A DNA stretch of 64,000 nucleotides from an uncultured Christensenellaceae bacterium (GCA_910587625.1 CAJUMW010000002.1:86002-150001); one strand, 5' to 3'; shown: positions 12,264 through 61,899, counted from the first letter of the stretch. The notes: generated by a model from the sequence alone, not told the origin. Made by a program: numbers and translations.

Positions 12264-12287
12264 AAAATCAATGTAAAATTCAATCAA

Positions 12288-12326: not shown

Positions 12327-12390
12327 GTATATGTTATCATTGTAATATACTTGTGAAAAACGAGTGAAAACGCAAAGGAGGTTCACTTTA

Positions 12391-44429: not shown

Positions 44430-44434
44430 TTCAA

Positions 44435-44475
44435 CACAGCGGCTCGGACAACTTATCGTTGTCCGAGCCGCTGTG
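44435..44475 (+). terminator. Strong hairpin after recO (terminator candidate without a clear T-run)
   Basis: CACAGCGGCTCGGACAAC-ttatc-GTTGTCCGAGCCGCTGTG, an 18-bp perfect stem. Confidence 0.6.
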
Positions 44476-44536
44476 TAATATCGCGTAATTTTCCTATTTA
44501 AAGTGAAAATTTCGTGAAATAATTTTTTTAAAACTA

Positions 44537-44565
44537 TTGCTATTTACACTATTATATGTTATAAT
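44537..44565 (+). promoter_or_regulatory. Sigma-A-type promoter candidate for the Hsp70/GTPase operon
   Basis: TTGCTA (44537-44542), 17 nt, TGtTATAAT extended -10 (44557-44565). Confidence 0.5.
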
Positions 44566-44619
44566 CAAAAAGAATTTGTGTACAAACAGGTTGTACAAAA
44601 AAATGATAAGGAGAACAGT

Positions 44620-45636
44620 GTGGCGGAAGAAATTAAGGTTATAGGCGTTACCGTCGAAAACGTAAATTACGACGAGTTTAAGGCAACGCTCGACAGATAT
44701 TACGACAAATTTGCCAGACTTATAAAGACCTATAAGGCAAAGGACGACACTATAGCAAAGCTCAGCGACGAGGTTACGAAATACAGGGGCGGATTTGCGC
44801 TTTCTATTGTAAAACCGCTTTGCGTTTCGCTTATATCGCTTAGGGAGGATTGCCGCAAGACGCTTGCAAATATCGAAAAATATTGCAAGGACGTCGAAAG
44901 CGTAGTCAGGTATTCGGACTATCTTTTATCCGACGTGGACGAGTTTATGTCAACTTACGGTCTTATTTACGGAGAGGACGGGTTTATTTTGAACGGAAAA
45001 AAGCTTAGCGACTGCGTGTCGAGAAAAGCCGCGTCCGTTTGCGACGAAGAGCAAAATTGCGAAAGTATCGAAAGCAATAGCGAAAACGTCGACGAAGGAG
45101 AGCAGAGCGAAGCGTGCGGCAAGGAGAGTTATTCGTTCAATACGCTTCTTTCCGAAATAGATTACGGACGGGAAAGGATGGAACAGCTTTTAACGGATTG
45201 TGCAAAAGCCGACGAAAATCTCGACCGTTACGTCAAGCTTGCGGCGTCTATCGAGGAGAACTATACCGACGCTATGCTGTTGCCGCTTTACAGGGAAATA
45301 GCTAATTTTTACGAAAAGCTGAAAGACAACGTCGAAGATGTCAAACAGAGGATAAACGAGGGCAATCTCGTACAGAGTTATTCCTCCTCGGTTAGCCTTG
45401 TAATAGACGAAACCTGGAAGCTGCTTATAATGGCAGGCGTTACAGTGGAGCACGACATATCCGACAGTTACGATATGCGCACCAACAAGATAGTCAAAAT
45501 TGTAAATTGCGACGATGAAAAACTTGATAGAACGGTTGCCGTAAGGCATACCGACTGTTACCTTTTCGACGGAAAAATTTTGTATCCCTCGAAAGTAGAC
45601 GTATATAAATACGTCCCCAAAAAAGTTGAAGAATAA
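44620..45636 (+). CDS. GrpE-like nucleotide-exchange-factor homologue (divergent, extended coiled-coil region)
   Basis: The C-terminal end aligns by eye with the GrpE beta-domain (LLIMAGVTVEHDISDSYDMRTNKIVKIV..RTVAVRHTDCYLFDGKILYPSKVDVYK vs GrpE GVE.I...G..FDP..H.A.......V..V...GY.L.GR.LR.A.V.V.K). The GTG at 44620 has AAGGAGA upstream. An alternative GTG lies at 44578. Confidence 0.65.
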   Translation: MAEEIKVIGVTVENVNYDEFKATLDRYYDKFARLIKTYKAKDDTIAKLSDEVTKYRGGFALSIVKPLCVSLISLREDCRKTLANIEKYCKDVESVVRYSDYLLSDVDEFMSTYGLIYGEDGFILNGKKLSDCVSRKAASVCDEEQNCESIESNSENVDEGEQSEACGKESYSFNTLLSEIDYGRERMEQLLTDCAKADENLDRYVKLAASIEENYTDAMLLPLYREIANFYEKLKDNVEDVKQRINEGNLVQSYSSSVSLVIDETWKLLIMAGVTVEHDISDSYDMRTNKIVKIVNCDDEKLDRTVAVRHTDCYLFDGKILYPSKVDVYKYVPKKVEE

Positions 45637-45669
45637 AAAATATTAAATAAAAAAGAGGAGAAAATCACA

Positions 45670-47328
45670 ATGGGTAAAAAAGTAGGTATAGACTTAGGTA
45701 CGACGTATTCAGTCGTAAGCTATGTTGACGAAACGGGCACAATCGTCAATATCGAGAGCGAAGAGGGAGAAAAGACCACCCCTTCGGTAGTATATTTCGA
45801 CCCCGACGGGCAGACCGCAGTTGTCGGAACGAGAGCGAGAGAGGCAGGTGCTTTGAACCCCGAGTTCCTTGTAGAGCGCGTAAAACAGTTTATGGACGAC
45901 CCCGATTACCAGCTTGAAATGCACGGCACTACATACTCGGCAAGCGCGGTTTCGTCTATTATTCTTAAAAAACTTATAACCGACGCCGAAAATGCGCTCG
46001 GCGGAGAGGAGATTGACGGCGCGGTTATTACCTGCCCCGCATACTTCGGTGACGTTGCCAAGGACGCAACGAGAAAAGCCGGAGAAAACGTAATTCTTTC
46101 CAACGGCAAAAAACTCAACGTTATGCGTATAATCGACGAGCCTACCGCAGCTGCGATAGCTTACGGTAACTCGCGCAGGGAGGACATGCACAAGACAGTT
46201 CTTATTTACGACCTCGGCGGCGGTACTTTCGACTGTACCGTAATGAAGCTCGACTTCGAGGGCACTAAGAAGGAATACAGAGTAATTACCACCAACGGCA
46301 ACCACAAGCTCGGCGGTAAAAACTGGGACGATACTCTTGCCGAATACGTTATGAGCGAGTTCTGCAACGCTACGGGCTGCGATATCGAGCTTATGCGTCA
46401 GGACTTCGAGGTCAAGGCTTGGTTTTCCGAAAACGTTGAAAAGGCTAAAAAACAGCTCACAAAAATGTCCAAAACAACGCTTACGCCCAGCTTTGACGGA
46501 CAAAAATACAGGGTTGAAATCGAGCGCACTCTTTTCGACGAAATTACCGACGGTCTTTTCAACGAAACTATTACGCTTATAAATCAGATGATGGATCAGG
46601 CAAACTTAAACTTTGCAACAGATATCGACGAAATTATACTTATCGGCGGTTCCACGCGTATGCCTCAGGTTGAAGAAAAGCTTACCGCCATTTACAATAA
46701 GCCCATTATGCAGTACGACCCCGACAAGGCTGTTTCAAACGGCGCGGCGTTGGTTGCAAGCGGTATGGACGCAGGCAATTCATCTTACGACCATGCCGAC
46801 AGTTCGGTGCCCTCAACCCCCGGAAAACCTTCTAACCTCGAACCTACCGAGTTTACGGATAAAGATGGTAATGAAGGATGTATTTTCGAGGTCTGCACCA
46901 AGTCGTATTGTCTGAGATATTACAGCGGCGGACAGGAAACTTATGTCAACCTTATAAAGAAGGACACCCCCAAGCCTGCAACGGGAACAACTGCTTTCCT
47001 TTTGCCCGGGCTTGTGATAGGCGGCGGTGACGGAAGCGGAATGACAAGCGAAATAGGCTTGCTTATTATGGAAAACGATTATAACGGCGACGAAGTAAGC
47101 CGCGACCAGTGCGTTGAAATTTACGAGGAAACTCCCCTTAAATTCGATACGCCCATTCCTTCGGATACAAAGGTTTCGGTCGAACTTTACGTCGACATTT
47201 CGGGTACGCTTACCCTTATTCTCACCGAAACGGACACGGGCAGAACGCATAAGCTCTATCCCGAGCGTATCGGCGGAGGAAATATAGGCAACGGTATGGA
47301 CGCAGCTGCAAAAATTACGCTGGGTTAA
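45670..47328 (+). CDS. Hsp70-family ATPase paralogue 1 (NBD plus SBD-beta-like region, no helical lid)
   Basis: GIDLGTTYS (phosphate-1), IYDLGGGTFDCTV (phosphate-2), IILIGGSTRMPQV (adenosine). 552 aa. The C-terminal beta-rich segment ends VDISGTLTLILTETDTGR. Confidence 0.88.
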   Translation: MGKKVGIDLGTTYSVVSYVDETGTIVNIESEEGEKTTPSVVYFDPDGQTAVVGTRAREAGALNPEFLVERVKQFMDDPDYQLEMHGTTYSASAVSSIILKKLITDAENALGGEEIDGAVITCPAYFGDVAKDATRKAGENVILSNGKKLNVMRIIDEPTAAAIAYGNSRREDMHKTVLIYDLGGGTFDCTVMKLDFEGTKKEYRVITTNGNHKLGGKNWDDTLAEYVMSEFCNATGCDIELMRQDFEVKAWFSENVEKAKKQLTKMSKTTLTPSFDGQKYRVEIERTLFDEITDGLFNETITLINQMMDQANLNFATDIDEIILIGGSTRMPQVEEKLTAIYNKPIMQYDPDKAVSNGAALVASGMDAGNSSYDHADSSVPSTPGKPSNLEPTEFTDKDGNEGCIFEVCTKSYCLRYYSGGQETYVNLIKKDTPKPATGTTAFLLPGLVIGGGDGSGMTSEIGLLIMENDYNGDEVSRDQCVEIYEETPLKFDTPIPSDTKVSVELYVDISGTLTLILTETDTGRTHKLYPERIGGGNIGNGMDAAAKITLG

Positions 47329-47353
47329 TAATTTAAGGTATAAAAGTTAAAAT

Positions 47354-47384
47354 TCCGCCGACGCCCGTTTACGACGTCGGCGGA
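47354..47384 (+). other. Intercistronic GC-rich hairpin between the two Hsp70 genes
   Basis: TCCGCCGACG-cccgtttacga-CGTCGGCGGA, a 10-bp stem with no T-run after it. Confidence 0.5.
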
Positions 47385-47421
47385 TAAGCCTATTTTAAAG
47401 TTAAATATAGCGAGAGTAAAT

Positions 47422-49500
47422 ATGAAAGAAATAAACGTCGGCATAGATTTAGGAACTACATATTCCGCAGTGGCGGTGTTCGATAGCGCAAGCGGCAGCG
47501 TAAAAATACTTAAAAACCACTTGGAGGAAGAAACTACGCCCTCGGTCGTGTGCATAGAAAACGGCAACGTGCTCATCGGCGTCGAGGCAAAGGACGAGCA
47601 AGCCGCAGGCAATGTCGGTGTTGCCGCGTTCTATAAAAATATGATGGGCAACGACGATTTAAAACCCTATCTCGACGGACGGGAATACACTGCGGAGCAG
47701 CTTTCGGGAATTTTTTTAAGCAAGCTTAAAGAGTCGGTCGAGGGCGCGAACAACGTTAAAATAGGCGGCGCGGTAATAACCGTTCCCGCATACTTCAACG
47801 AGGCGCAGCGTCAGGCAACGATACGCGCGGGAGAGGCGGCCGGGCTTAAAGTGCTTAAAATTATCAACGAGCCGACGGCGGCAATTATCGCATACGGACT
47901 TACGGGCATCGGCAAACGCAACGTAATGGTCTATGATTTGGGCGGAGGCACGTTCGACGTGACTATAGCAAAAATCGACGGGGCAAACGTTCAGGTTATA
48001 GCGACCAACGGCAACCACCAGCTCGGCGGCAAGGATTGGGACAACGCACTTGTCGAAATGGTAACGTCGCAGTTCGAAAACGATTACGAAATAAGGCTTG
48101 CGGAATATCCCGAGGCATATAACGGACTTTTAGTCCAGTGCGAAAGGGCAAAAAAACAGCTTACTGCAATTCCATCGACTACAATTTCAATAACCTGTTC
48201 GGGTTATAAGGGCAGATATACCGTTACACGCGAGGAGTTTGACGCGAAAACTGCACCCTATCTCAACGAGACGCTTACGCTGTCCGAAAATTGCTTTTCG
48301 GAAATCGGCGGCGGCTTCGGCTGGCACTCGATAGACGAAGTGGTGCTTGTCGGCGGTTCCACGCGTATGCCTCAGGTATCCGAGCTGATAACAAAAGTTT
48401 TCGGCAAACCGCCCAAGATTATAGGCAACAAGGTGGATACCATTGTTGCGACGGGCGCGGCTATGCAGGCAAGTTTATGCACTTCGGGCACGATAACTTT
48501 AAACTTGCGGAGCTTCGGCGTCAAGACATCGGCAAACGGCGGCAGCGCGCCAGCAACTTTGACTTTGAGTAACGACAATATCAAGGACGTAACCTCGCAC
48601 AGCCTCGGAATGCTGGCGTTATCAAAGGACGGGGGCGATATTGTAAACAGTATAATTATAAAGAAAAACAGCCTTACTGGCGTTCCGTATGGCAGGCAAT
48701 ATAACTTCAAGGGGGAAAAACTTGAAGTCTATGTTTTGCAGGGAGAGCTTACTTCACCCTACGAATGTACTTTGCTCTACAAATACATAGTTACGGGAAT
48801 GGATAAAAACGCCAAAAACGAGTTTACCATAAACTTTCAATACAACCAGAACGGCGTAGTTGAAGTTACGGGCAATCTTAAAAACGGCGCGGCGTTAGCC
48901 GTGCAAAAGACAATTGTCGACGAGAGTATAGAGGAAATTATAGCAAGATTAAAGCGCGAGAGGGAAGAGGCTCAAAGCCGTAGGCGTTCACTCGACGTCA
49001 CGTTTGCTATCGATACTTCGGGCAGTATGGCAGGCTCGGGCATAAGGGAAGCCAAAAAATCAATTACAAAATTTATCGAAAAGCTCGATTTGAAGTACGC
49101 GCGCGTGTCGGTAATAAGCTTCGACAGCAATTACAGGTGGATTTGCAGAAACGATAAGTCGGCAGGTTCAATCAACTCGGCGGTTGAAAGACTTTCGGCG
49201 GACGGCGGCACCAGCGCAGACCCGTTTGAACTCTATCTTTCCGACGTAAATTTAAGCGTTGACGAGCAGAGGGTGATAATAGCTTTGACTGACGGGGAAT
49301 GGTTCTATCCCGACGAGGCAATAAGAAACGCGGACAATTTGAAATCGCGAGGAGTAATTATATATGCCGTCGGCGTGGACGGAGCGAATTACTCGTTCCT
49401 TGAAAAAATCGCTTCCCCCGGCGGAGCTAAAAAAATAGATTTGTCGCAGTTGACAAAGACGTTTTCGGACATTGCGTCGTCAATTGCTACCGAACAGTAA
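47422..49500 (+). CDS. Hsp70-family ATPase paralogue 2 fused to a C-terminal von Willebrand factor A (vWA) domain
   Basis: GIDLGTTYSAVAV, VYDLGGGTFDVTI, VVLVGGSTRMPQV, and an SBD-beta-like DVTSHSLGM... A short helix follows, then a vWA domain with MIDAS residues DTSGS..GGT..TDG (about 48991-49497). Confidence 0.88.
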   Translation: MKEINVGIDLGTTYSAVAVFDSASGSVKILKNHLEEETTPSVVCIENGNVLIGVEAKDEQAAGNVGVAAFYKNMMGNDDLKPYLDGREYTAEQLSGIFLSKLKESVEGANNVKIGGAVITVPAYFNEAQRQATIRAGEAAGLKVLKIINEPTAAIIAYGLTGIGKRNVMVYDLGGGTFDVTIAKIDGANVQVIATNGNHQLGGKDWDNALVEMVTSQFENDYEIRLAEYPEAYNGLLVQCERAKKQLTAIPSTTISITCSGYKGRYTVTREEFDAKTAPYLNETLTLSENCFSEIGGGFGWHSIDEVVLVGGSTRMPQVSELITKVFGKPPKIIGNKVDTIVATGAAMQASLCTSGTITLNLRSFGVKTSANGGSAPATLTLSNDNIKDVTSHSLGMLALSKDGGDIVNSIIIKKNSLTGVPYGRQYNFKGEKLEVYVLQGELTSPYECTLLYKYIVTGMDKNAKNEFTINFQYNQNGVVEVTGNLKNGAALAVQKTIVDESIEEIIARLKREREEAQSRRRSLDVTFAIDTSGSMAGSGIREAKKSITKFIEKLDLKYARVSVISFDSNYRWICRNDKSAGSINSAVERLSADGGTSADPFELYLSDVNLSVDEQRVIIALTDGEWFYPDEAIRNADNLKSRGVIIYAVGVDGANYSFLEKIASPGGAKKIDLSQLTKTFSDIASSIATEQ

Positions 49501-49538: not shown

Positions 49539-52328
49539 ATGGCAGCGGTTAAAACGAGAACTGCAGAAGAATTAAAACAGTCTAAATATAATTATTTTAT
49601 CGTCCTCGATTTGAGCGTCAACGAAAAGAATCCTACTACAATACTGCAGGCACTTAAAAAGAAGTTTCCGGCCAATCAGGGTACGCCCAAAGACCCTTAC
49701 TTAGCTCGGCTTTTGGAGTTAAAGGGGGATATGGAGCAGGTACTTGTAAACGACGCAAGATATGACGACGCTTCCGGACAGTACGTTGCAAAGAGCGGAA
49801 TAAGAAAGGAAGAGGGAGATAGGGCTAAAAACTTTAAGCTTTCCGAAGTTATGACTATTGTTAGGGTCAAGTGCCAATCAAACGGCATAATGTACAAGAC
49901 CGAGCTTAGAAAGCTGTGCGTAGACGCAAACAAGAAAGCCGTGTTCTTCGAATTTGCCGAGCTTGAAAAAAAGTTTAAAGACGAAAAGCTCGATTCGGTC
50001 GTAAAATACATAGACAACGAAACCAACATCATAAATTTTATAGCGTTCGACGATATTTCCGATTTGTTGCAGGTTGAAGGCTTTGCCGACTTATACGCAT
50101 ATCTAGGACTGACAAACTCGGCAAGCTCGCAGCAGATTTTGTCGGAAGAAAAGAGAATTACAAACGAAAAGCTTGCAAACACGGGCGACAAGGAAAAAAA
50201 GAACCGCATAAACGCCTTTTCTGGCAACATTCAGACGATATTCAAGACGCCGGCATCGAGAAAGCAGTACGACGACTATCTGAAATCGCGTGAAAGCGTT
50301 TGGTCGCAGTTCAAAATTAGAAAGGCGTACAGCAAGGAAATTTCGCTGAACGAGTATATAGATTTCGTCGAAAAGCTTATGAAGGCTTTGAATATCCGCT
50401 TGGACGACGCGCAAACTATGCTCGGCGCAGGTTTAAAAAACTACGGCTTTATAGTCACGGGCGGCACAGCTAACGGAGCCGAAAAGAGCAAAATGGGTAT
50501 TACCGACCTGTCCTCTTGCCGTTTCTGCGGTTCGCTGTATAAAAAGGGCGCAAAAAGTTGCCCCAACTGCGGAAAATTGCTTGTTTCGGCGTGCTGGAAC
50601 TGCGGCGCTTCAATGGATTTGACAGTCACAAGCGTCTGCGGCAAGTGCGGAGCGAGCGAGGCGTTAAAAAAGAGCTTTGCGGCGGAAGTTATAAATTTGA
50701 ACAAGCTTTTTCAGTCGGGACAGTACAAGGAGTATGCGTTAAAGAGCGAGGCGTTCAAGCGCACTTATTCAAGCTTTAACCAGCCGCGTTCGCAGGTGGA
50801 AAGGGAGATGGCGGCAATAACCAAGACCTCCGACGACATTGTTTCGAAACAGCGCGAAAAGGAAACTACTTCAAAAAACTATCTTGCTAAAATAAACGCG
50901 GCAATAACTTCGAGAAAGTATTTCGAGGCGCAAAATCTTTTAAGGCAGTTAAAGCAGGTCGTTCCCGACGCAAACGTTAAGGCGGAAGAGAGCAGAATAA
51001 ACGCCGTCATTGCCGAGGTTCAGCAAATTTACAGGCAGATATGCGCGCTCGGCTCTGACGAGGCAAGAATTATACCCGAGTATATGCGTCTTTACGAAAA
51101 GTGCGTTGACTATTCCGAGGCGCAGTCGGTTATAAAAAAATTCCCGCCCAAACCTCCCGTCGAAGTTACCGTATCCGTGAGCGAAAGGGGCAATATAATA
51201 AAGTGGAACGTTCGTCCCGACGACACTATCACATACTCGGTAGTCAGAAAAATAGGCGCGGCGCCGAGAAGCGCAAGCGACGGAGATTTGCTTGTTTCGG
51301 GTCTGCGCGCGTTTACGTTTACCGACCTTAAAGCCGAAAACGTAGTACCTTATTTTTACGGCGTTTTTGCAACAAGGCTGGGTAGCGATTCTGCACTAAC
51401 CTGCACCAAAGCTTCTTGCCAAAGGTACGCAAACGTCACTATAAAGAGCAGTAAAGTGCTTGTTAACGGGCTCAAAGTAGAGTTTGCCTCTCTTTCGGGC
51501 GTAAGTAAAGTCATAGTTGTGCGCTCAAACGACGCTACGCCGCCCAAGAGCATTTCAAGCGGTACCAAAATTCCCGTAGACGAAAACGGGTTCACCGATT
51601 CTACTTTGCCCGGTTCGGGATTATACGGCTATTTCATTGTCTGTGAGTACATTGTAAACGGCAAACCCGTGTACTCGTCGGGAATATCCGAAACTTTCGA
51701 GTTCTACGAAAGACCGTCGTTTGTGGAAAACGTCAGGTTCAAAAAGGAAGAGGGCAACCTTTTTTGCGTAACTTTCAACGAGCTGGCTGTGGGTAAATTT
51801 GATATTTACGCTTCAAAGACGGCTGTCGTCGGCTTGAAATCCAACGAGTATTACAATATTTCAAAGCTAAACGGGCTTACGGATATCGAGTGTAAAAACG
51901 TAAAGCCCACTTCGGTAAACTTCGAGCTGCCGGGCAGGGGAGATTGGTTCTTCTACCCCGTGTGCGTGCAAAAGAGCGAGTTTACGGTGGGAGACGAGTA
52001 TATCTACCGCGATACCTCCCCCAAGTCGGCGGTGGTGCAGTATGAAGTTAAAGTAAATAAAAACAGCACTGTTTCCATCGATTTTGCCTGCGACCACCTT
52101 GTGGAGCTTGACGCTGTGAGGGTTGTGGGGACTGTCGGCAGACGGCCGAGAAACGTAAACGACGGAGAATGCGTGTCCGTGCTTGACGGAATAAAATTCA
52201 AAAAACCGCTGTTCTCCAAGGAGTACAAGGCAAGCATAAAAGTGTCCGTAGAGGGACGTAATCGCGGCAACGTTTACGCAGTATTTGCCGAAAACGACCA
52301 AGGAATAATATTTAAGAGGAAAGGATAA
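49539..52328 (+). CDS. 929-aa multidomain protein: J-like domain lacking HPD, double zinc ribbon, helical region, C-terminal beta-sandwich-like repeats
   Basis: The J-like stretch DLYAYLGLTNSASSQQI..KLANTGDKEKK..TPASRKQYDDYL (about 50088-50282) has ANT where HPD is expected. Four CxxC pairs (CRFC..CPNC..CWNC..CGKC) lie at 50517-50648. The beta-rich C-terminal half is Fn3/Ig-like by pattern only. Confidence 0.7.
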   Translation: MAAVKTRTAEELKQSKYNYFIVLDLSVNEKNPTTILQALKKKFPANQGTPKDPYLARLLELKGDMEQVLVNDARYDDASGQYVAKSGIRKEEGDRAKNFKLSEVMTIVRVKCQSNGIMYKTELRKLCVDANKKAVFFEFAELEKKFKDEKLDSVVKYIDNETNIINFIAFDDISDLLQVEGFADLYAYLGLTNSASSQQILSEEKRITNEKLANTGDKEKKNRINAFSGNIQTIFKTPASRKQYDDYLKSRESVWSQFKIRKAYSKEISLNEYIDFVEKLMKALNIRLDDAQTMLGAGLKNYGFIVTGGTANGAEKSKMGITDLSSCRFCGSLYKKGAKSCPNCGKLLVSACWNCGASMDLTVTSVCGKCGASEALKKSFAAEVINLNKLFQSGQYKEYALKSEAFKRTYSSFNQPRSQVEREMAAITKTSDDIVSKQREKETTSKNYLAKINAAITSRKYFEAQNLLRQLKQVVPDANVKAEESRINAVIAEVQQIYRQICALGSDEARIIPEYMRLYEKCVDYSEAQSVIKKFPPKPPVEVTVSVSERGNIIKWNVRPDDTITYSVVRKIGAAPRSASDGDLLVSGLRAFTFTDLKAENVVPYFYGVFATRLGSDSALTCTKASCQRYANVTIKSSKVLVNGLKVEFASLSGVSKVIVVRSNDATPPKSISSGTKIPVDENGFTDSTLPGSGLYGYFIVCEYIVNGKPVYSSGISETFEFYERPSFVENVRFKKEEGNLFCVTFNELAVGKFDIYASKTAVVGLKSNEYYNISKLNGLTDIECKNVKPTSVNFELPGRGDWFFYPVCVQKSEFTVGDEYIYRDTSPKSAVVQYEVKVNKNSTVSIDFACDHLVELDAVRVVGTVGRRPRNVNDGECVSVLDGIKFKKPLFSKEYKASIKVSVEGRNRGNVYAVFAENDQGIIFKRKG

Positions 52329-52329
52329 A

Positions 52330-53448
52330 ATGTCGGGAAAAATTATTTGCCCCTATTGCTATACCGAACAAAAACTTAAACTTATGAAAAAAATTTGCAT
52401 AAGCGACGGTTGCGAGGAAAACACAAAAAACACAAAGTTTTCCGCAAAGGAGAGCAACTGCCCCAAATGCGGCAGCAACCTGCGCTATGCCTGCACTAAT
52501 CCCAAGTGCGGACACTCTATTGAAAAGGACGAGTTGGAGTGCAAAGACCCCCTGCCCATAGCTATTATCGGGGCAAGGTATTCGGGCAAATCCAACTATA
52601 TAGCCGTTGCCGTGCACGAGTTGCAGGTTAAGGGCAACAGATTCGGAATAGGTATCAGAGCCAACGCCGCGACGGCTTCCGTGTATTCACAGGAATACGA
52701 AGCGCCGGTTTTCAAGCGTCAGGTTCCAATTACCACCACGCGCGCCGCAACAAAGAAAAATAAGCGCGAGCCGCTTATATTTATGCTTACCACGGGACTG
52801 AATAAGGGTAAGCGCGGAACATTTCCGCTGTCATTCTATGATACCGCAGGGGAAAATATGGAAAAGAGCGACCTCGATACCGAGGAGTACGTCGGATATA
52901 TCTCCTATGCAAAGGGGCTTATCATACTTATGGACCCGTGGCAGATACCTTACGTCAAAGACAGGCTCGGCGGCATAATTCCGCCCGAGGCAAAGAACGC
53001 CATAGGTTTAAGTCCCTACGAAATTTTGGAGCGAGCTATTCGCGTCATACGCAGTCAGACCAAAATGAAGGTCAATGACAAAATCAAAATACCCATTGCA
53101 ATTGCGTTCAGTAAAATAGACTCGCTTGAAAGCGGCGGACTTTTGGAGGACGGCAGTTGCCTTACGCGCCCGTCGTCGCACATAGACGAGGGCAAGTATT
53201 CAAAGCTCGAACACGACGACACCAACAGCGACATAATGAGTATGCTTCAATACTTCGACGAGGAAGAGGCGGAAAGGTTTTTGAACCTTACTCGCAACAA
53301 TTTCGAGACATATTCGTTTTTCGGGTTTTCGTCGTTCGGCTGCGGACTTACGGGCGGCAAGCTCAGTCAAAAGGTCAAACCGAGAAGGGTGCTCGACCCG
53401 TTCCTTTGGCTGCTTAGCATAAACAAACGTATTCAGACTACAAAATAA
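52330..53448 (+). CDS. Zinc-ribbon plus small-GTPase-like P-loop protein (soluble paralogue)
   Basis: It starts 1 nt after the upstream stop. CPYC..C..C..CPKCG..CTNPKCGH. Walker A/G1 GARYSGKS (52570-52593), G3-like FYDTAGE, G4-like FSKID. C-terminal LDPFLWLL motif. Confidence 0.75.
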   Translation: MSGKIICPYCYTEQKLKLMKKICISDGCEENTKNTKFSAKESNCPKCGSNLRYACTNPKCGHSIEKDELECKDPLPIAIIGARYSGKSNYIAVAVHELQVKGNRFGIGIRANAATASVYSQEYEAPVFKRQVPITTTRAATKKNKREPLIFMLTTGLNKGKRGTFPLSFYDTAGENMEKSDLDTEEYVGYISYAKGLIILMDPWQIPYVKDRLGGIIPPEAKNAIGLSPYEILERAIRVIRSQTKMKVNDKIKIPIAIAFSKIDSLESGGLLEDGSCLTRPSSHIDEGKYSKLEHDDTNSDIMSMLQYFDEEEAERFLNLTRNNFETYSFFGFSSFGCGLTGGKLSQKVKPRRVLDPFLWLLSINKRIQTTK

Positions 53449-53462: not shown

Positions 53463-56183
53463 ATGAGATATAAACAGTTGATTTATACGTCTTACAAAAA
53501 ATACAACTCGGACGTAACGGGTGAATCAAGCGGTTACGACGTGTTTGCGATGACGCCCGGTATAAGCGAAGAAGAGCGCGACGAGCTTATTGCAATGTTC
53601 ACAAACTATGCCGTTCCCAACGACCCGAGGTTGAACGATTTGGAAAATATCGAAAAGAACGTCGAGCTGTACGCGCCCAAACAGCGCGCATACCTCAAGC
53701 TGTCCACGGGCAGGTACTGCTGGTGTCAGGTTTCGCTTATGCCCTACGATTTCAGCGGACGTTACAACAGCATTTACTTTCACGCCGTATTATCGGATGA
53801 AGAGCCCGATTTTGCTCCCGTCGACTTTTTCGAAAACTTTACCTTTAAAACAAAGCTCACCGACGACGAGTTTCACGCGCGCGTTACGCCGCCCGAGCTC
53901 AGGGAGGAAAACATCGACGGCAAGCTTATGCAGAGGGCAAGGCAGACGGTTAAGTTCGAGCGCGCGGTTTTAACTAAAATTCTCAACTCTGTTTTATATT
54001 GCGTAAGAGAAAATAAGCCTCTGTTTTTAAATTGCAAGACGGAAGAGGCTTACGACGCAATAAAATCCGTGCTCGCATTTTTGCCCGTTTCGCTTGCAAA
54101 AGCCGCTTATTTTTCCACATACTCCTCCGACGAACAGGAGGACGGGCGCGCGTTCAGAATTTGCCATATGGGCGATGAATTCGGCTATTCAAACAGGCTT
54201 TCAAACACCTATGTAGCCGTTGCCGATTTAATTGAAAATAAATTTTCCGAACACATTCCCGACGACGCGTTTATTGCAAGGCTTGTCGAGTATGCGTACA
54301 CGAACGCGGCTAATTTGGACAGGTTAAAAGCGTTTTACGAAAATTATACGAAAGGCTCGCTCGGCTTTTCGTCGGAGGCGCTTGTCAACGCATACGACTT
54401 TATGTACACCGAAGCATACGAGCAGTTTGATTTGCACACTTTCAAATCGGTAATATCGGACGCGTACATAACTACCGTGCCCCAAAATGCGAGGGCGTCG
54501 AGAATAAAAGAATATCTTGCCGCAAATATGCCGGATGTGCGGGAGCGCGGCGTACTGCTCAATGAAATTTATAAGCTTACGGCAGATAAGCGAATTCTTA
54601 CCGACTACACAAGCGAGCTTTTGAAAATGGTTGTAGACGTCGAGCTTAAAACCGACGAAGCTGCGGAAATTTTAAAGAGCGTTTTCGGCTGCGATTTAAG
54701 AATGGTTGTTTTAGCCGAACTTGACACATACACAAATCTTTTGTCGTCAAACATCTCTGAAACCGCGGTGTTCGAGCTGGTTGTCGGATTGCTTTTGAGT
54801 GCGGAAAAGGTGGACAGAGCAAAGGCTGACGAGCTGTATTCGTTGCTCTTCAACGGAATTTCGGCTAAGGGTGACTTGAATTTGTTGACGGGCATGCTTT
54901 TGCCGAGCTTAAAAAATAGCGCATATTTCAACGTGTGCGTTAAAAAGATTTTTTCAAGCTACTGTAAAAATGCCGAGCACGCGGCATATTGGCTTGATTT
55001 CTGCATTAATTGTGCCGACGAAACTATACGCGACGTATTTTTAAACCTTACGCTCGAGTACGTCGGCAGCGACGAGCTTTTGCGTGTAGTCGCTGTCAAC
55101 CCTCAGATATGCAATCACATTCTGGCTCTGCTTAAAAAAATCGACCAAAAGAACCTTTGTAAGGACGCAATTTTCAATATTATTTGCAAGCTGCTTCGCG
55201 CGGCGCTTGCCGTATCTCCCGTTGCGGATACTGCGGTAAATATTATTAAATTTTACGACGTTTTGAAGTATGAACGCATAGGGGAGTTGTACGACATAAC
55301 TTACGAAGTTTTACAGGGCAACATTTCAAACGTGTTTATCAAACTTGCCGAGCAGTACGGAGACGATTATGTAAGCGCAATTGCGCGCGGTAAGTGGAGT
55401 AATTTTGCCGAAAATATTCTTATTTCGAGCATTCGTACCGACGAGGACGTAATTTCGAGATATATAAAGAAGTATTATGTAAAGGGCAACTTCCGCGAGT
55501 GTTACGACGGAATTATGTCGGCAATCGAGTTTGGGGACGACACCCGGCAGTGGTTGTTCTACGGCAGGCTTTTAAACGAAGTAAAGGGACTGCACGATAA
55601 CGCTTTAACTAAGGTATATACCTTGCTAAACGCCAAACTTTTCGATATTTCTCACAGTGACAGAAAGGCTGTTGCAAAGGTAATTTCGGACATTTGCGCT
55701 ATATCCGACATACGCGTTTCAAAGGAAATAGAACTTGTTTCGAGACTTATTAACTTTGACGGAAAATATAAGACGGCTGTTGAACTTGAGGACTTTATTT
55801 TAGCAGTTTGCTCAAACGATGATAAGGTCGGTTCGGGAGTGTTCGCCTACTACTATGACGTACTTTTGGGCGTTTCGCTTGTAATTGTCAAAAAGAAAAA
55901 GCCGTCAAAGCTTTTGTCGCTCATCTACGCAAGCGGCTTGGAAGACGAGTATATTGCAAAGCTTTGGGACGTCTATTTTAAAAAGGACAAAAAAGCGCAG
56001 ATTATGTATATGCTCGAGCTTATGCGCGAGGATATAAGCTGTGCGGACAGTGATTACAAAAACAGTCTTTTAAAATATTTTTACGGACATTCCGACGAGA
56101 AGTTTATAGCTAAGTTCAATAAATTGCTGTCAAAAAGCAAGAACGATAAATTTGCGGCTTCGGCGGAAAAATATAAAAATTGA
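53463..56183 (+). CDS. 906-aa predominantly helical protein, function unknown (possible GTPase-associated partner)
   Basis: Good SD (AAGGGGA). The N-terminus is MRYKQLIYTSY....GYDVFAMTPGIS.. followed by ..YDFSGRYNSIYFHAVL. The rest is a helix-rich repeat-like sequence. No catalytic motif seen. Confidence 0.7.
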   Translation: MRYKQLIYTSYKKYNSDVTGESSGYDVFAMTPGISEEERDELIAMFTNYAVPNDPRLNDLENIEKNVELYAPKQRAYLKLSTGRYCWCQVSLMPYDFSGRYNSIYFHAVLSDEEPDFAPVDFFENFTFKTKLTDDEFHARVTPPELREENIDGKLMQRARQTVKFERAVLTKILNSVLYCVRENKPLFLNCKTEEAYDAIKSVLAFLPVSLAKAAYFSTYSSDEQEDGRAFRICHMGDEFGYSNRLSNTYVAVADLIENKFSEHIPDDAFIARLVEYAYTNAANLDRLKAFYENYTKGSLGFSSEALVNAYDFMYTEAYEQFDLHTFKSVISDAYITTVPQNARASRIKEYLAANMPDVRERGVLLNEIYKLTADKRILTDYTSELLKMVVDVELKTDEAAEILKSVFGCDLRMVVLAELDTYTNLLSSNISETAVFELVVGLLLSAEKVDRAKADELYSLLFNGISAKGDLNLLTGMLLPSLKNSAYFNVCVKKIFSSYCKNAEHAAYWLDFCINCADETIRDVFLNLTLEYVGSDELLRVVAVNPQICNHILALLKKIDQKNLCKDAIFNIICKLLRAALAVSPVADTAVNIIKFYDVLKYERIGELYDITYEVLQGNISNVFIKLAEQYGDDYVSAIARGKWSNFAENILISSIRTDEDVISRYIKKYYVKGNFRECYDGIMSAIEFGDDTRQWLFYGRLLNEVKGLHDNALTKVYTLLNAKLFDISHSDRKAVAKVISDICAISDIRVSKEIELVSRLINFDGKYKTAVELEDFILAVCSNDDKVGSGVFAYYYDVLLGVSLVIVKKKKPSKLLSLIYASGLEDEYIAKLWDVYFKKDKKAQIMYMLELMREDISCADSDYKNSLLKYFYGHSDEKFIAKFNKLLSKSKNDKFAASAEKYKN

Positions 56184-56367: not shown

Positions 56368-57315
56368 ATGGGTTATTTAATTGGTTTTGGTATCATACTC
56401 GGTATAATAGCCGGTATTTGTTACGGAATATACACGTTATGCGTAATTATCTGGAATATGCAGGTATGCTATCACGGCAGTATGGACGCTATGTTCAGTG
56501 TCACGCTGATTATTGTCGTTTTGTTGGCTGCTTTGGTTGTAGTTTGTTTAATTGTTGCGGCATTGTTTGAATTGGACGGATTGAAAACCGTTGTATTGCG
56601 CATTATGTTGCCCGCAGCGATAGGCTTTTTGGCTCTTTCGGGCATAGTTTATATTTACGGCTATTGCGAACCTGTATTTTTGGGTGTTGACGCATTAAGT
56701 GACCCTGCGTATAACAATTATTTTTTGAATACAGAACGGGATATAATGGTCAATGATTTGAGTCCGTTTACTACAATTCAGGCTTGGGTCATATTGATAA
56801 GCGGAACTTTGCTTTTCATTGCCGCAGCATTTTCGATTATAGCGGCGCTGATATCGTCCGTCCGTTACGGAGATATATATCTCGGCAGTGCATTCAGTGT
56901 GTTGTTTAAATGCTTATACCGCATATTTTTACCTGTTTTAATTCTTGTTGCGGTGCTCGTAGGCTGGTACTATTTAACCACTATCGTTCTTTGGGACTAT
57001 GATTTATTCGATTTGATTATTCACGGCATAGCAACCTCGGGCGCGCTGCTCGGAGCGGTAGTCGGGTTTGCTTTTCTTGTAAACAGACAGCCGCTTGCCG
57101 CCGCCTTTTCACTCGGGCTTGCCGCGGCTGTGGCATTTGTAAGCTACACCGTGTTCGGCGCAAAGATACTGCTTGATTTGATGAGCGAGTATTATCTGTT
57201 TATAATTTTAGGTTTCATAGGGTTATACTTATTGCTCGGCGTTGTTTACTGTCTTACAAGAATTAAAGTAATAAGAAATATCATAAGACGTGCAAAATAT
57301 ATGTATTGGTTATAA
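56368..57315 (+). CDS. Polytopic membrane protein (about 8 TM), function unknown
   Basis: 315 aa, almost entirely hydrophobic helices. SD TGAGGT upstream. Confidence 0.75.
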   Translation: MGYLIGFGIILGIIAGICYGIYTLCVIIWNMQVCYHGSMDAMFSVTLIIVVLLAALVVVCLIVAALFELDGLKTVVLRIMLPAAIGFLALSGIVYIYGYCEPVFLGVDALSDPAYNNYFLNTERDIMVNDLSPFTTIQAWVILISGTLLFIAAAFSIIAALISSVRYGDIYLGSAFSVLFKCLYRIFLPVLILVAVLVGWYYLTTIVLWDYDLFDLIIHGIATSGALLGAVVGFAFLVNRQPLAAAFSLGLAAAVAFVSYTVFGAKILLDLMSEYYLFIILGFIGLYLLLGVVYCLTRIKVIRNIIRRAKYMYWL

Positions 57316-57330: not shown

Positions 57331-58731
57331 ATGAAAAAACAAAGATTGGAAGAACCTGCAAGGACTAAACTGTTTTGGATTCCCATTTACAACATTCTTT
57401 TTTATACCGTCAAAGAAATTCTTTTGGACGTATGGGATTTGGCGTCGACTGTCGGCAATAAATTTTTCCGCCTGCTCTGGGTGGTAGTGTTTCCCTTTCT
57501 TCTGGTAATTTATCCGGCTACCTGTCTTGTACTGCTGCTGGTAATTATAGTTTTACTTTTTGTTACGCTGGTTAACTATATTTTCGGCGGCGTCAGCTAT
57601 GTGGTGGACAGCTTGTATTTAAAAATTCACGGAATAGGGCTTGTGTGTCCCGCGTGCAACAACAAGTATCAGTTGCCGACATACATATGTCCAAGATGTA
57701 ACGCCCAACATAAGAACCTGCGCCCCGGCAGGTACGGCATTGCAAAGCGCACCTGTAAGTGCGGCGCAAAGCTGCCCACAACGTTCTTTAACGGCAGGCA
57801 GCATCTTGACGCCATATGCCCTAACCCGGCTTGCCGCTATGCTTTCAAATCGAAGATACTGCCGGCACGCCCCATATGTATTCCCATTATCGGCGGCGTA
57901 TCCTCGGGTAAAACAAGCCTTATAAACGCAGGTATAGACGGGCTGAATAAATATTGCCAAATCCCCGACAATAAAATGGAGTTCGAGTATTGCTCGAACG
58001 AGGACGAGCAGAGGCACAAGAGAAACCTTGAAATTTTAAAGACGAGGAACACCGACAAGACTCATAAACAGCAGTTCGACTCGTACAAGTTCTATTTCTC
58101 TCCTCAGGGCGCAAAGGTAAAGAACAGGGTTTACGTCTATGACGTTGCCGGAGAGGTCTACGACGCCAAAAAGCAGAATATTGTTGAAAAGACGCAGGTT
58201 TTCGACTTTACAAACAGCTTGCTGTTCGTATTGGACCCTCTGTCTATCGACGATTTTTACGACGACTGCGTTCAGGCAAAGGTGCCCAATCTCGAAAGAT
58301 ACAAGCGTTCGGACAGAAGTATGAACGACGTTGTTACAAATATGATAAACAGCCTCGGCGTGTTTGCAAGTCTTACGCCCGAAAGGTGTAAAAAGGTGTT
58401 TGTAGCGATAGTTATTACAAAGGGCGACTTGCCGCTAATTAAAGACCAAATCGGTGACGAGTACGTCGCAGAGCTTGCAAGGCAGAACAGAACGACATGG
58501 AATAGGGCTAAAAATATTGCCTGCGAGCAGTTCCTTGACAAGTATCAGGCTATGAACTTTCTCAACATAATAAGGAATAAGTTTGAAAATTATCAGTTTT
58601 TCACAACCAGCTCGTGGAGCGGAGAACAGAACAAGTACGTTGCGGAAAATGCCGAGGACCCGTTCCTTTGGCTGATTGATATGGAAAGTCCCGAAATTGA
58701 CCTTAAAACAAAGTGGAACAGCAATAAATAG
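57331..58731 (+). CDS. Membrane-anchored zinc-ribbon plus small-GTPase-like P-loop protein (paralogue of 52330-53448)
   Basis: Two N-terminal TM helices. CPACN..CPRCN..CKCG..CPNPAC. G1 GGVSSGKT (57892-57915), G3-like VYDVAGE, G4-like ITKGD. C-terminal EDPFLWLI motif shared with the soluble paralogue. Confidence 0.75.
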   Translation: MKKQRLEEPARTKLFWIPIYNILFYTVKEILLDVWDLASTVGNKFFRLLWVVVFPFLLVIYPATCLVLLLVIIVLLFVTLVNYIFGGVSYVVDSLYLKIHGIGLVCPACNNKYQLPTYICPRCNAQHKNLRPGRYGIAKRTCKCGAKLPTTFFNGRQHLDAICPNPACRYAFKSKILPARPICIPIIGGVSSGKTSLINAGIDGLNKYCQIPDNKMEFEYCSNEDEQRHKRNLEILKTRNTDKTHKQQFDSYKFYFSPQGAKVKNRVYVYDVAGEVYDAKKQNIVEKTQVFDFTNSLLFVLDPLSIDDFYDDCVQAKVPNLERYKRSDRSMNDVVTNMINSLGVFASLTPERCKKVFVAIVITKGDLPLIKDQIGDEYVAELARQNRTTWNRAKNIACEQFLDKYQAMNFLNIIRNKFENYQFFTTSSWSGEQNKYVAENAEDPFLWLIDMESPEIDLKTKWNSNK

Positions 58732-58744: not shown

Positions 58745-59335
58745 ATGGGTTCGACTTATTCGGCGGTGTGCCCGGGGTGCGGCGGCAGCCCAAAACCCGG
58801 TACAAACATATGCGAGTTTTGCGGAAAAGAGCTGTTTATAACTACTTTCAATCCGCTTTTCAATATGAATTTTCCCGACGTAAACAAGTATATGAGGTCT
58901 TATTCCTCGGGCGGATTCGGAGAAACCGACGAGCAAAAGGCAAAGCGGCTTATGGCGCTTGGGCTATGTCAATTAAAATTAAAACTCTACGATAAGGCGG
59001 CGCAGAGCTTCGAAGAGGTAGTAAATATCGCGTACGACTGTGCTGAGGCATATTACTGTGCGGCGTTGTGCGTGTTCAAGGGCAACAGACCCTTTCTTTC
59101 AAACATTAAAAGCGTCGAAAGGGCGGAACAGCTTTTAAGTGCCGCACTGTCCGTAAGCAGAAAGGGAATATATTATCTGTTTGCCGCTTTTATAAAAAAG
59201 GACTTTTACGAGCGTAAGTTTTATAAGACGAGCCCGAGCAGCAGGGACTATAAGGCCGAAGCAGATAAATTGGGCGTGCCGCAGGGAGATAAAACTTCGC
59301 TCGAGCAGCTTTTAAACACAAGAATAGATATTTAA
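58745..59335 (+). CDS. Zinc-ribbon protein with TPR-like helical repeats
   Basis: The ATG at 58745 is preceded by AGGAGG. CPGCG..CEFCG lies at 58769-58822. Helical hairpins follow: ALGLCQLKLKLYDKAAQSFEEVV..AEAYYCAALCVFKG. Confidence 0.65.
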   Translation: MGSTYSAVCPGCGGSPKPGTNICEFCGKELFITTFNPLFNMNFPDVNKYMRSYSSGGFGETDEQKAKRLMALGLCQLKLKLYDKAAQSFEEVVNIAYDCAEAYYCAALCVFKGNRPFLSNIKSVERAEQLLSAALSVSRKGIYYLFAAFIKKDFYERKFYKTSPSSRDYKAEADKLGVPQGDKTSLEQLLNTRIDI

Positions 59336-59345
59336 GGAGTAGAAT

Positions 59346-60377
59346 ATGACGCTTTATTCGGTTATAAAAAACCAAAGTCCGTTGCCCTGCCTTTTATGGA
59401 AACACCCGGGTGAGGACTTCAATAACAACTCGCAGCTTACCGTATCCGAGTCGGAGGTGGCGCTGTTTTATAAAGAGGGAGTAATAGTTCAGGAGTACAC
59501 GGGCGGCAGGTATACGCTCAACACCAATAACGTTCCCTTTATAAGGCGCATAATTTCGAAGTTTTCAGGCGGTGTTTCGGCGTTCAACTGCGCAGTATAT
59601 TTTATAAGCAAGACGCATGCAATGGACGTGAAGTGGGGAACTCAATCTCCCATTCCCATGCGCGACGCACAGTACGGGTTTGCCGTCGGCGTGCGCGCGA
59701 GGGGGTCTTATACCGTTCAGGTAAAGGACGCAAAGAAATTTCTTTTAAAGATGCTCGGCACAAATATGACGACGTATTCGGTGGAGGAGTTAAACAGTTG
59801 TTTCAGAACGGCGTTCCAGCAAAAGATAAAGGTCGAAGTTGCGACCGTTATGAAAAACCTTAAAATGACTATTCTCGATATGGCTACGGAATACGAGAAT
59901 ATCGCAAACAAACTTCACCCCGTTATAAACGGCTTGTTGGATGAATACGGGCTTCGCTGTGTAAACTTTTATGTTTCGGATATTTCCATACCGCAGGACG
60001 ACCCCAACTATCAAAAGATAAACGAGGCGTATGCGCGCGTCGGTTCGAGAAATATCGAGGGAATAACCTGGCAGCAGGACACACAGGCAAACATCTTGCG
60101 CGATATGGCTAACAATCAGGGCTTCGGAGGAATGGGCGCAGGTATGGGTATGGGCTTTGCCGCCGGAAATATTTTCGGCAGTATGGCTAACGGCGCTTTC
60201 TCGCAGCAGGCTCCTCAACAGCAGGGCGCAAAGTGCCCGTCGTGCGGAACGGATAATGCAAAGTCGGCAAAATTCTGTTCCAACTGCGGCAAACCGCTTG
60301 CGGCTGTCTGCCCCAATTGCGGCGCTTCTTTGACGTCGGGCGTAAAATTCTGCTCGAACTGCGGATTTAAAGTGTAG
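59346..60377 (+). CDS. SPFH/band-7-like protein with Gly/Met-rich linker and C-terminal double zinc ribbon (B. subtilis YdjI / COG4260-like)
   Basis: N-terminus LLWKHP.EDF...SQL.V.ESE.A.F.K.G. followed by a beta/alpha SPFH-like core. Linker GFGGMGAGMGMGFAAGNIFG. CPSCG..CSNCG..CPNCG..CSNCG at 60234-60362. Confidence 0.78.
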   Translation: MTLYSVIKNQSPLPCLLWKHPGEDFNNNSQLTVSESEVALFYKEGVIVQEYTGGRYTLNTNNVPFIRRIISKFSGGVSAFNCAVYFISKTHAMDVKWGTQSPIPMRDAQYGFAVGVRARGSYTVQVKDAKKFLLKMLGTNMTTYSVEELNSCFRTAFQQKIKVEVATVMKNLKMTILDMATEYENIANKLHPVINGLLDEYGLRCVNFYVSDISIPQDDPNYQKINEAYARVGSRNIEGITWQQDTQANILRDMANNQGFGGMGAGMGMGFAAGNIFGSMANGAFSQQAPQQQGAKCPSCGTDNAKSAKFCSNCGKPLAAVCPNCGASLTSGVKFCSNCGFKV

Positions 60378-60387
60378 AGGTGTACAT

Positions 60388-61068
60388 ATGAAACTGCTTC
60401 CCAAAATAATTATATACGTCTTGTTTTTAGTTGCGTATTCTCTGCTTGTATTTCTTCTCAACGCCGATTATACCGTCGTGTTCGGTCTGGCATACGCGTT
60501 TGCGGCGCTTGCCGTGCTGGTGCAATTTACCTGCACGATACTCGTCGATAAAAAGATTAAGGCTGAATTTTTGACCTATCATCTGGTCTTTGTATTGCTG
60601 TCGTACACGGTTATCAACCTTATTGCAAATACCCTTTGCGCGTTTTTCCACAGGGAGATTACCTATCTTGTACCGTTGCTTGTAAACGTGTGCCTGCTTG
60701 CAGGTTATACAATTTACTTTATAATTCATTTCAACAGCGTTAAAGCCATTGAAAGCAACGTCAAAGAGGAGCGCGCTCGCTTGCAGTTTGTAAGGGTTGC
60801 GGCGCAAAAGCTCGAACTGATAATGAGTTCCCTTACGGATATTTCCGTTAGCAAAAAAGTGGAAATACTTTACGACGCAGTGAGGGGCAGTCAGGCGCTC
60901 GGCAACGAGGGCGTTGCCGCCCTCGAGCTTGAAATTTTGTCCGACATAGATATGCTGCAAATTTTATATGACGACGATAATTTCGAGGGTGCGGACAGAC
61001 TTTCGCAGAGCATTTTGACAAAATTAAACAGGCGCAACGCATATATAACTTCTTCACAGGTGGTGTAA
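60388..61068 (+). CDS. 4-TM membrane protein with cytoplasmic helical tail, function unknown
   Basis: 226 aa. SD GAGGTG. Four hydrophobic helices, then a helical segment of about 100 aa. Confidence 0.7.
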   Translation: MKLLPKIIIYVLFLVAYSLLVFLLNADYTVVFGLAYAFAALAVLVQFTCTILVDKKIKAEFLTYHLVFVLLSYTVINLIANTLCAFFHREITYLVPLLVNVCLLAGYTIYFIIHFNSVKAIESNVKEERARLQFVRVAAQKLELIMSSLTDISVSKKVEILYDAVRGSQALGNEGVAALELEILSDIDMLQILYDDDNFEGADRLSQSILTKLNRRNAYITSSQVV

Positions 61069-61851: not shown

Positions 61852-61852
61852 T

Positions 61853-61889
61853 AAAACTGCCGCAAAGCTTTAAACTTTGCGGCAGTTTT
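61853..61889. terminator. Bidirectional intrinsic terminator closing the Hsp70/GTPase operon
   Basis: AAAACTGCCGCAAAG-ctttaaa-CTTTGCGGCAGTTTT followed by ATT. Confidence 0.8.
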
Positions 61890-61899
61890 ATTATATAAA

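Follow-up and report, generated by a model that had tools for sequence, protein, structure and literature searches.

What are a gene for a GrpE-like exchange factor and two genes for lid-less Hsp70s doing together behind recO in a gut bacterium? The question is raised by positions 44578 to 49500 of a 64,000-nucleotide stretch of an uncultured Christensenellaceae bacterium (GCA_910587625.1, CAJUMW010000002.1:86002-150001), referred to here as the window. A preliminary description of this DNA had proposed a chaperone cycle made of specialised Hsp70s with their own exchange factor and serving clients encoded in the operon. Our sequence analysis indicates that the three genes are very probably the chaperone module of a membrane-associated GAP1-N2-type DO-GTPase conflict system, carried as an accessory block inserted after era-recO. 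The three open reading frames (ORFs) that had been described are indeed present and occupy the interval exactly (352, 552 and 692 aa). Their layout is given below; the evidence for the GrpE-like gene comes from Pfam, the topology of an AlphaFold2 (AF2) model, hhalign and a hidden Markov model (HMM) of the N-terminal half. NBD stands for nucleotide-binding domain and SBD for substrate-binding domain.

44578..45636, + strand: GrpE-like nucleotide exchange factor, tandem of two GrpE units
44659..44997, + strand: N unit (aa ~28-140), with a long helix, a helix and one beta hairpin
aa ~150-185 of the same protein, + strand: acidic disordered linker between the GrpE units
45130..45612, + strand: complete C unit (aa ~185-345), including the beta domain
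45670..47328, + strand: Hsp70 paralogue 1, with NBD (aa 1-365), disordered linker (aa 371-389), divergent SBD-beta-like domain (aa 393-552) and no lid
47422..49500, + strand: Hsp70 paralogue 2-vWA fusion, with NBD (aa 1-354), SBD-beta (~aa 385-500), short helix and vWA domain (aa 525-668)

The chaperone trio is not a free-standing chaperone operon. It forms the head of a same-strand block that runs from ~44.5 kb to at least 58.7 kb, downstream of yqfD-phoH-HDIG-ybeY-era-recO, and the genes that follow the trio are separated by spacers of ~0-184 nt. These genes encode a large protein with a J-like domain, two DO-GTPases, a GTPase-associated protein and a polytopic membrane protein.

49539..52328, + strand: 929-aa candidate adaptor or sensor, with N-terminal J-like domain, double zinc ribbon (aa 327-371), coiled region and beta-rich C-terminal half
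50076..50282, + strand: J-like domain without HPD (aa ~180-248), in the conserved N-terminal region (profile-versus-PDB match)
52330..53448, + strand: DO-GTPase with N-terminal zinc ribbons (PF19993, 27.3 bits, gathering score 27; P-loop GARYSGKS, Walker B DTAGE, SKID)
53463..56183, + strand: GAP1 (GTPase-associated protein 1) with N2-type N domain (PF20013, 51 bits, gathering score 24)
56368..57315, + strand: polytopic membrane protein with ~8-9 hydrophobic segments (hydropathy scan; no family match)
57331..58731, + strand: second DO-GTPase, with N-terminal transmembrane (TM) segments and zinc ribbons (PF19993, DO-GTPase2, 35.4 bits; P-loop GGVSSGKT, Walker B DVAGE, TKGD)
58745..61851, + strand: four more genes, encoding a zinc-ribbon and helical protein, an SPFH/Band-7 protein with double zinc ribbon (59346-60377) and two TM proteins

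The GAP1-N2 gene begins 14 nt past the first DO-GTPase gene, and its product also contains a GAP1-M region that scores 18.5 bits, under its own gathering score. Both DO-GTPases, of the TRAFAC clade, carry the Walker B glutamate and N-terminal CxxC pairs in their translations. In the second one, a crude hydropathy scan placed N-terminal hydrophobic segments at aa 41-78, possibly more, and no TM segment at the C terminus. The four genes at 58745..61851 are possible members of the system. Among them, the SPFH/Band-7 protein, with its two C-terminal zinc ribbons, resembles the Band-7 and zinc-ribbon protein of the Bacillus subtilis ydj psp operon (PMC11237479).

Systems of this kind were predicted by comparative genomics by Kaur, Burroughs, Iyer and Aravind (eLife 2020; PMC7159879). 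Under a "second theme", the available text of that paper describes an HSP70 with GrpE, a second HSP70 in a subset, and a fibronectin type III (FNIII) protein typically fused to DnaJ (or to TPR repeats), together with zinc-ribbon DO-GTPases (one with a TM segment), GAP1-N2 and vWA domains, in a membrane-proximal setting in Firmicutes and Actinobacteria. The window agrees with this theme gene for gene: zinc-ribbon DO-GTPases that carry Walker-B DxxGE, predicted TM segments being present in one; GAP1-N2 downstream of a GTPase; HSP70, GrpE and a second HSP70; a large beta-rich protein with a DnaJ-type domain; vWA; membrane components; and a Firmicutes host. The locus therefore belongs to a system type already predicted there. 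It also departs from the published account, which in its available text has no residue-level description: here the exchange factor is a tandem GrpE, the seemingly NBD-only Hsp70 has a divergent SBD-beta in its model, and the J-like domain lacks HPD. These three traits are refinements that this text does not give. Further differences are that the vWA domain is fused to an Hsp70 at the position of the lid, that FNIII is not confirmed by sequence, that a C-terminal TM segment is missing from the second GTPase and that the hosts are unicellular gut Clostridia. The supplement text of the 2020 paper, as available, contains no HSP70, GrpE or DnaJ entries.

We then compared the block with eleven related loci from Clostridia and Anaeroplasma metagenome-assembled genomes (MAGs), numbered L004 to L014, and with a sibling system, L015. 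The order GrpE-like, Hsp70-1, (extra Hsp70), Hsp70-vWA, J-like/double zinc-ribbon (DZR) protein is kept in all eleven, at different chromosomal sites. One of them, L007, comes from a mouse-gut MAG (uncultured Christensenella sp. MGBC129263), shares 93-99% protein identity with the window and sits at the same era-recO junction; the ten others come from rabbit, deer, buffalo and further gut or rumen Clostridia and Anaeroplasma MAGs. A DO-GTPase lies downstream in seven loci (L004, L006, L007, L008, L009, L010 and L014), and in L007, L008, L010 and L014 the DO-GTPase and GAP1 genes come straight after the J/DZR gene. In the window and in L007 the block follows recO, and in L004 it follows yebC. 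Tyrosine integrases immediately precede it in L005 and L006, and L006 has a restriction enzyme close by. The J/DZR protein diverges fast: a word search found only three clusters, at 32-65% identity as against 50-66% for Hsp70-1, and across the compared loci the protein falls to 27-34% identity while Hsp70-1 stays at 50-66%. The varied sites, the adjoining integrases and this fast divergence fit an accessory, mobile and fast-evolving system.

Some of these loci carry additional genes. A third Hsp70 paralogue lies between Hsp70-1 and Hsp70-vWA in L005 (11812-13356, 514 aa), L009, L011 and L013. In L004, L005 and L006 the J/DZR gene is followed by a TraG/VirD4-like ATPase and small genes, with the DO-GTPase beyond them in L004 and L006; the ATPase is ~445 aa long (PF02534, PF10412, PF12696) and is encoded at 17100-18437 in L004, 19923-21272 in L005 and 17663-18997 in L006. 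The sibling L015 encodes a single-unit GrpE (220 aa), an Hsp70 and an Hsp70-vWA at 8001-12488, and, divergent from this group at 1-4891, two ABC-type ATPases, a DZR protein, a DO-GTPase2 and a GAP1-N2.

Are the two Hsp70s housekeeping chaperones? Against the DnaK equivalog NF001413 the paralogues score 273 and 296 bits (cut-off 648), and against the HscA equivalog TIGR01991 they score 249 and 266 bits (cut-off 709). These values are far under the NCBIfam DnaK/HscA equivalog cut-offs of 648-822 bits, so the pair consists of neither DnaK nor HscA orthologues. The two proteins are 39.7% identical to each other, in the NBD only. Both translations contain the phosphate-1, phosphate-2 and adenosine motifs that had been reported (GIDLGTTYS, DLGGGTFD and GGSTRMPQV), and in paralogue 1 the catalytic residues D8, K72, E157, D181, T186 and D188 are invariant in 109 relatives. 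By motif, the pair thus appears catalytically intact, with SBD-beta kept and the lid absent.

The SBD-beta of paralogue 1 is hidden at the sequence level. Its match to Pfam HSP70 (PF00012; E = 2.8e-82) covers model positions 2-373 only, and Pfam and PDB sequence searches detect the NBD alone; a sequence-only hhalign comparison of its C-terminal domain with the SBD region of paralogue 2 is not significant either (E = 0.17). We therefore turned to structure. An AF2 model built from the 109 relatives (pLDDT 90, pTM 0.87) folds aa 393-552 into an all-beta domain. In Foldseek, the model superposes on ATP-state full-length DnaK and BiP (4b9q, 4jn4, 5nro, 5e84) with TMq 0.78-0.80 and a root-mean-square deviation of 3.5-3.9 A, as against 0.59 for an NBD-only chain and 0.55-0.57 for undocked ADP-state chains. 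According to the model, paralogue 1 therefore has a divergent SBD-beta, docked on the NBD as in ATP-bound DnaK, and no lid. This C-terminal beta domain is strongly conserved among the relatives, for example at Y413, N427 and E468, and the family as a whole comprises more than 120 clusters with at least 49% identity over 91-100% of the length.

Paralogue 2 is more readily recognised. It matches Pfam HSP70 with E = 1.4e-97 over model positions 2-534, a range that takes in the NBD and SBD-beta and reaches into the first part of helix A, and in the PDB it aligns with Geobacillus kaustophilus DnaK over the NBD and, weakly, over SBD-beta (DnaK 379-497). The SBD-beta-like regions proposed earlier are thereby recovered in both proteins, by AF2 superposition in one and by the Pfam match and weak PDB alignment in the other. 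The missing helical lid also holds up. In the AF2 model of paralogue 1, two short helices are all that follows the beta domain before the chain ends at aa 552; paralogue 2 leads, by way of a short helix, into a vWA domain at aa 525 (PF00092, E = 5.6e-19) with an intact metal ion-dependent adhesion site (MIDAS), DTSGS...GGT...TDG, read from the translation. An SBD-alpha lid is found in neither. The preliminary description had further remarked on a missing "EEVD-type tail of DnaK", which is a misattribution: EEVD is a tail feature of eukaryotic cytosolic Hsp70 and not of DnaK.

The GrpE assignment of the first gene is carried by its family. All eight close homologues match Pfam GrpE (best E = 1.2e-10), and the L005 orthologue does so at 36.2 bits. 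Against 1.84 billion representative proteins, the family profile gave 1452 matches at E <= 1e-3. They include ~75 full-length tandem relatives (310-550 aa, clusters at 50% identity) and, as the next group, single-unit proteins of 180-300 aa at E ~1e-15 to 1e-19; all ten single-unit proteins that were scanned are Pfam GrpE proteins (42-63 bits). GrpE homology is thus established at the family level, while the window sequence taken alone falls under the curated threshold.

The same protein contains two GrpE units. Its AF2 model (pLDDT 67) shows the succession long helix, helix, beta hairpin twice, over aa 31-138 and over aa 187-336, on either side of the acidic disordered linker; the "two long coiled-coil-like stretches" noticed earlier are real and correspond to two GrpE-type long helices. 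An hhalign comparison of the N and C halves (17 sequences) gave E = 8e-6 with 103 columns in register, whereas a reversed control gave E = 0.057 over 20 columns. The observed score was 38.2, compared with 13.3 +/- 2.3 (maximum 20.7) for 100 shuffles in 7-column blocks. In addition, an HMM of the N half alone matches single-unit Pfam-GrpE proteins at library-scale E = 4e-11 to 1e-4, covering on them the same residues as the first ~105 positions of the C-half HMM. The link of the N unit to GrpE was established by these two comparisons, and other searches did not show it: in Pfam, six N-half sequences gave one weak GrpE match (E = 0.074), and a 14-sequence N-half profile had no match in the PDB. 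The Foldseek search with the full model placed GrpEL1 chains at the top in the PDB, with a weak E of 0.18.

Most of the beta domain is missing from the N unit, and the chain departs from the standard architecture of one GrpE unit per chain. Canonical GrpE is a homodimer that binds one DnaK asymmetrically (1DKG). Given this asymmetry, it is a reasonable inference that the GrpE-like protein is possibly a covalent pseudo-dimer in a single chain, with the contact domain retained in just one of its units. A single-unit GrpE occupies the same position in the sibling system L015, and the tandem is therefore the derived form. The annotated start of the gene, GTG at 44578, lies only 12 nt past a promoter-like -10 element. 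Six bases upstream of another GTG, at 44620 and in the same frame, stands a good ribosome-binding site, AAGGAG; the true start may be this second codon, in which case the protein would have 338 aa instead of 352 aa.

The partner encoded next has a J-like domain. DZR (PF12773) is matched in the 929-aa protein, and a six-sequence profile of its N-terminal region matches DNAJA3 (6iws, E = 1.3e-6), Escherichia coli DnaJ (1bqz, 6.7e-5) and Thermus thermophilus DnaJ2 (E = 2-3e-3) in the PDB. The match spans profile positions 177-244, ~68 residues that correspond to helices II and III of the J fold. Neither the protein nor five relatives match Pfam DnaJ or fn3; faint Fn3 (Fn3_SaeA) matches were seen in the DZR protein of L015.

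Taken together, the equivalog scores, the synteny in eleven loci and the published arrangement uphold the central part of the earlier proposal, namely specialised Hsp70s with their own exchange factor. What that proposal overlooked is the DO-GTPase/GAP1-N2 context, the J-like partner and the tandem GrpE. The view of the pair as specialised, non-housekeeping and tied to the operon's genes is thus partly supported, and it is plausible that the clients are encoded in the operon.

Several observations weigh against a conflict system built on this chaperone module. On the side of the chaperones, the window copy of the GrpE-like protein reaches only 21.9 bits against PF01025 (gathering score 25.8; E = 1.6e-4, aa 188-344 on model 14-165), so that the earlier GrpE call stands for the family and falls below threshold for this copy, and neither a single-sequence nor an eight-sequence profile search of PDB sequences gave a GrpE match. 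HPD falls in an alignment gap in 6/6 members and is absent throughout the 929-aa protein, which makes a canonical J-stimulated cycle doubtful; a profile of the beta-rich half had no match in the PDB, and the FNIII repeats named in PMC7159879 are not confirmed by sequence. On the side of defence, no toxic effector (nuclease, TIR or pore former) is recognisable in the block, PADLOC, which has no models for this system type, gave no meaningful match for ten block proteins, and a search of the available literature found no experimental follow-up on this system type. A defence role therefore rests on one comparative-genomics paper together with genomic context. The available text of that paper also reports an enrichment in bacteria with a multicellular habit, and the hosts here are gut Clostridia MAGs.

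Could the same block serve the cell envelope instead? It might act in membrane or envelope-stress homeostasis, or in the assembly of a sub-membrane complex, with Hsp70 and GrpE chaperoning or polymerising membrane-proximal components. A TM-anchored DO-GTPase and a polytopic membrane protein in the block would suit such a role, as would the SPFH/Band-7 and zinc-ribbon gene directly downstream on the same strand, with its architecture like that of the ydj psp operon protein, and the lack of a toxic effector and of a PADLOC match. This alternative does not account as well for the patchy, island-like distribution, for the integrases and restriction enzyme beside relatives, or for the fast evolution of the J/DZR protein, whose identities of 32-65% against 50-66% for Hsp70-1 fit an arms race. 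We consider it unlikely, although it survives better than any other rival.

It is highly improbable that the block serves a mobile element by helping DNA or protein translocation during transfer, with Hsp70 and GrpE working alongside a TraG/VirD4-like coupling ATPase. Such an ATPase follows the J/DZR gene in L004-L006, and integrases lie upstream in L005 and L006. Yet family scans of the window's block found no relaxase, integrase, TraG-like ATPase or other conjugation gene, and L007, L008, L010 and L014 pass straight from J/DZR to DO-GTPase and GAP1. The available main text of PMC7159879 does not mention TraG or VirD4, and its mentions of HerA/FtsK are unrelated to DO-GTPase systems.

That these are housekeeping Hsp70/GrpE genes in an unusual arrangement has a negligible chance of being right: in its favour, the 64-kb window, which covers part of the genome, contains no canonical dnaK, grpE, dnaJ or hrcA, but the scores far under the DnaK cut-offs, the missing lid, the vWA fusion, the J-like domain without HPD, the differing chromosomal sites with adjoining integrases and the rarity of the tandem GrpE-like family (only ~75 clusters at 50% identity among 1.84 billion proteins) all speak against it. 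We set this reading aside on scores, architecture and mobility, the search for a dnaK operon having been confined to the window.

How might the chaperone module of the proposed DO-GTPase conflict system work? The J-like/beta-rich protein and GAP1 could act as sensor or adaptor, and the DO-GTPase pair as a GTP-dependent membrane switch. The J-like domain would recruit the Hsp70s, probably without canonical HPD-dependent stimulation of the ATPase. A lid-less SBD-beta could then bind partner segments with fast on and off rates, while the vWA MIDAS would hold a second ligand. The tandem GrpE, as a covalent form of the asymmetric GrpE dimer with one beta domain contacting the NBD, would free ADP and reset the Hsp70 cycle, so that ATP turnover would set a threshold for assembly or disassembly of the complex. 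A protective output against phage or another invader is most likely. The available text of PMC7159879 likewise suggests that Hsp70, instead of folding proteins, may form a module that uses NTP to drive assembly or set a threshold.

A bolder version of this scheme can be offered tentatively, and we regard it as somewhat unlikely in its full form. Here the module would be a self-contained, nucleotide-gated assembly machine, not a folding chaperone: a pseudo-dimeric GrpE, the first natural covalent version of GrpE2:DnaK1, would act with a J domain that lacks HPD and recruits Hsp70 without hydrolysis; the two Hsp70s, lacking lids, would use their open SBD-beta to bind linkers of one another or of the adaptor, in the way seen for lid-truncated BiP in crystals; the vWA MIDAS would cross-link a filament or lattice; and the immune output, subject to a threshold and controlled by the DO-GTPase pair, would consist in its growth at the membrane.

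These possibilities matter because Hsp70 machines are well understood, yet this variant alters the lid, the HPD of the J domain and the GrpE dimer together and wires them to a GTPase switch. If the tandem GrpE is a covalent pseudo-dimer, it provides a natural test of GrpE asymmetry. As an immune system, should it prove to be one, the block would use the Hsp70 cycle as a threshold or assembly device and not for proteostasis. The locus is also a compact, well-delimited and clonable gene set from a gut Christensenella-like MAG.

Other known machines share parts of this design. With the canonical DnaK-DnaJ-GrpE system, the module has in common the catalytic NBD motifs, SBD-beta, a GrpE-derived exchange factor, a partner with a J fold and an exchange-factor gene upstream of the Hsp70 gene. 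It differs in having no SBD-alpha lid, two paralogues (one fused to vWA) and a GrpE doubled in one chain, and in lacking HPD, a Gly/Phe region, the client-binding domains of DnaJ and hrcA. HscA/HscB, which act in Fe-S assembly, and HscC illustrate how an Hsp70 can be reserved for few clients and have a J partner to itself. The module follows the same principle of a dedicated Hsp70; HscA, however, has a lid and needs no exchange factor, HscB has HPD, and the window's Hsp70s score under the HscA cut-off.

Among predicted defence systems, Type III CoCoNuT (PMC11090510) is comparable in that CnuD/CnuCD place an Hsp70-like NBD/SBD module in a GTPase-containing system with vWA. CnuD has degenerate Walker-type motifs and a proposed role in RNA binding, unlike the Hsp70s here; the GTPase is of McrB type and not a DO-GTPase, and GrpE and DnaJ are unmentioned in the main text of that paper. 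The MoxR-vWA ternary systems, as described in the available text of PMC7159879, pair an NTPase chaperone with a vWA co-chaperone, together proposed to set the deployment threshold, a combination whose analogue here is Hsp70 and vWA in one polypeptide. Their ATPase is an AAA+ MoxR, and their third components are VMAP or iSTAND.

Finally, we examined the limits of the block and its non-coding features.

44434..44476, + strand: perfect 19-bp hairpin, terminator-like (inverted repeat I5, 100% complementary), just 3' of the recO stop codon (44429)
44537..44565, + strand: promoter-like TTGCTA-17-TATAAT with extended -10 TG (consensus scan, 10/12 positions; a consensus match only), immediately 5' of the GrpE-like gene
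47354..47384, no strand assigned: GC-rich hairpin of 12 pairs (9 G-C) in the 93-nt spacer between the Hsp70 genes (hairpin/sequence scan)
61846..61896, no strand assigned: palindrome with 25-bp arms, resembling a bidirectional terminator (inverted repeat I1, 96% complementary; terminator scan)

The hairpin behind recO marks the upstream edge of the block, and the palindrome at 61846..61896 is the likely end of the transcription unit. The hairpin in the Hsp70 spacer may act as an attenuator or affect mRNA stability, and might tune the relative expression of the pair. Around the block, att-like direct repeats and terminal inverted repeats were sought, with chance-level matches only, such as I2 (73% over 30 nt, with an 11-mer core expected by chance).

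Elsewhere in the window, an ORF at its left edge (81-1139, + strand) matches the C-terminal ~160 residues of anti-phage ProA (NF058533, E = 9e-60) and Hhe (NF042953). At ~43 kb from the block, it has the look of another gene of defence type, probably truncated by the window edge. Two further genes are each divided between two overlapping ORFs on the + strand: secA (16744-18414 and 18359-19870) and a heavy-metal P-type ATPase (9907-10989 and 10809-12263). In both cases the pair spans the full family model, and the splits could reflect either assembly errors that introduced frameshifts or genuine pseudogenes.

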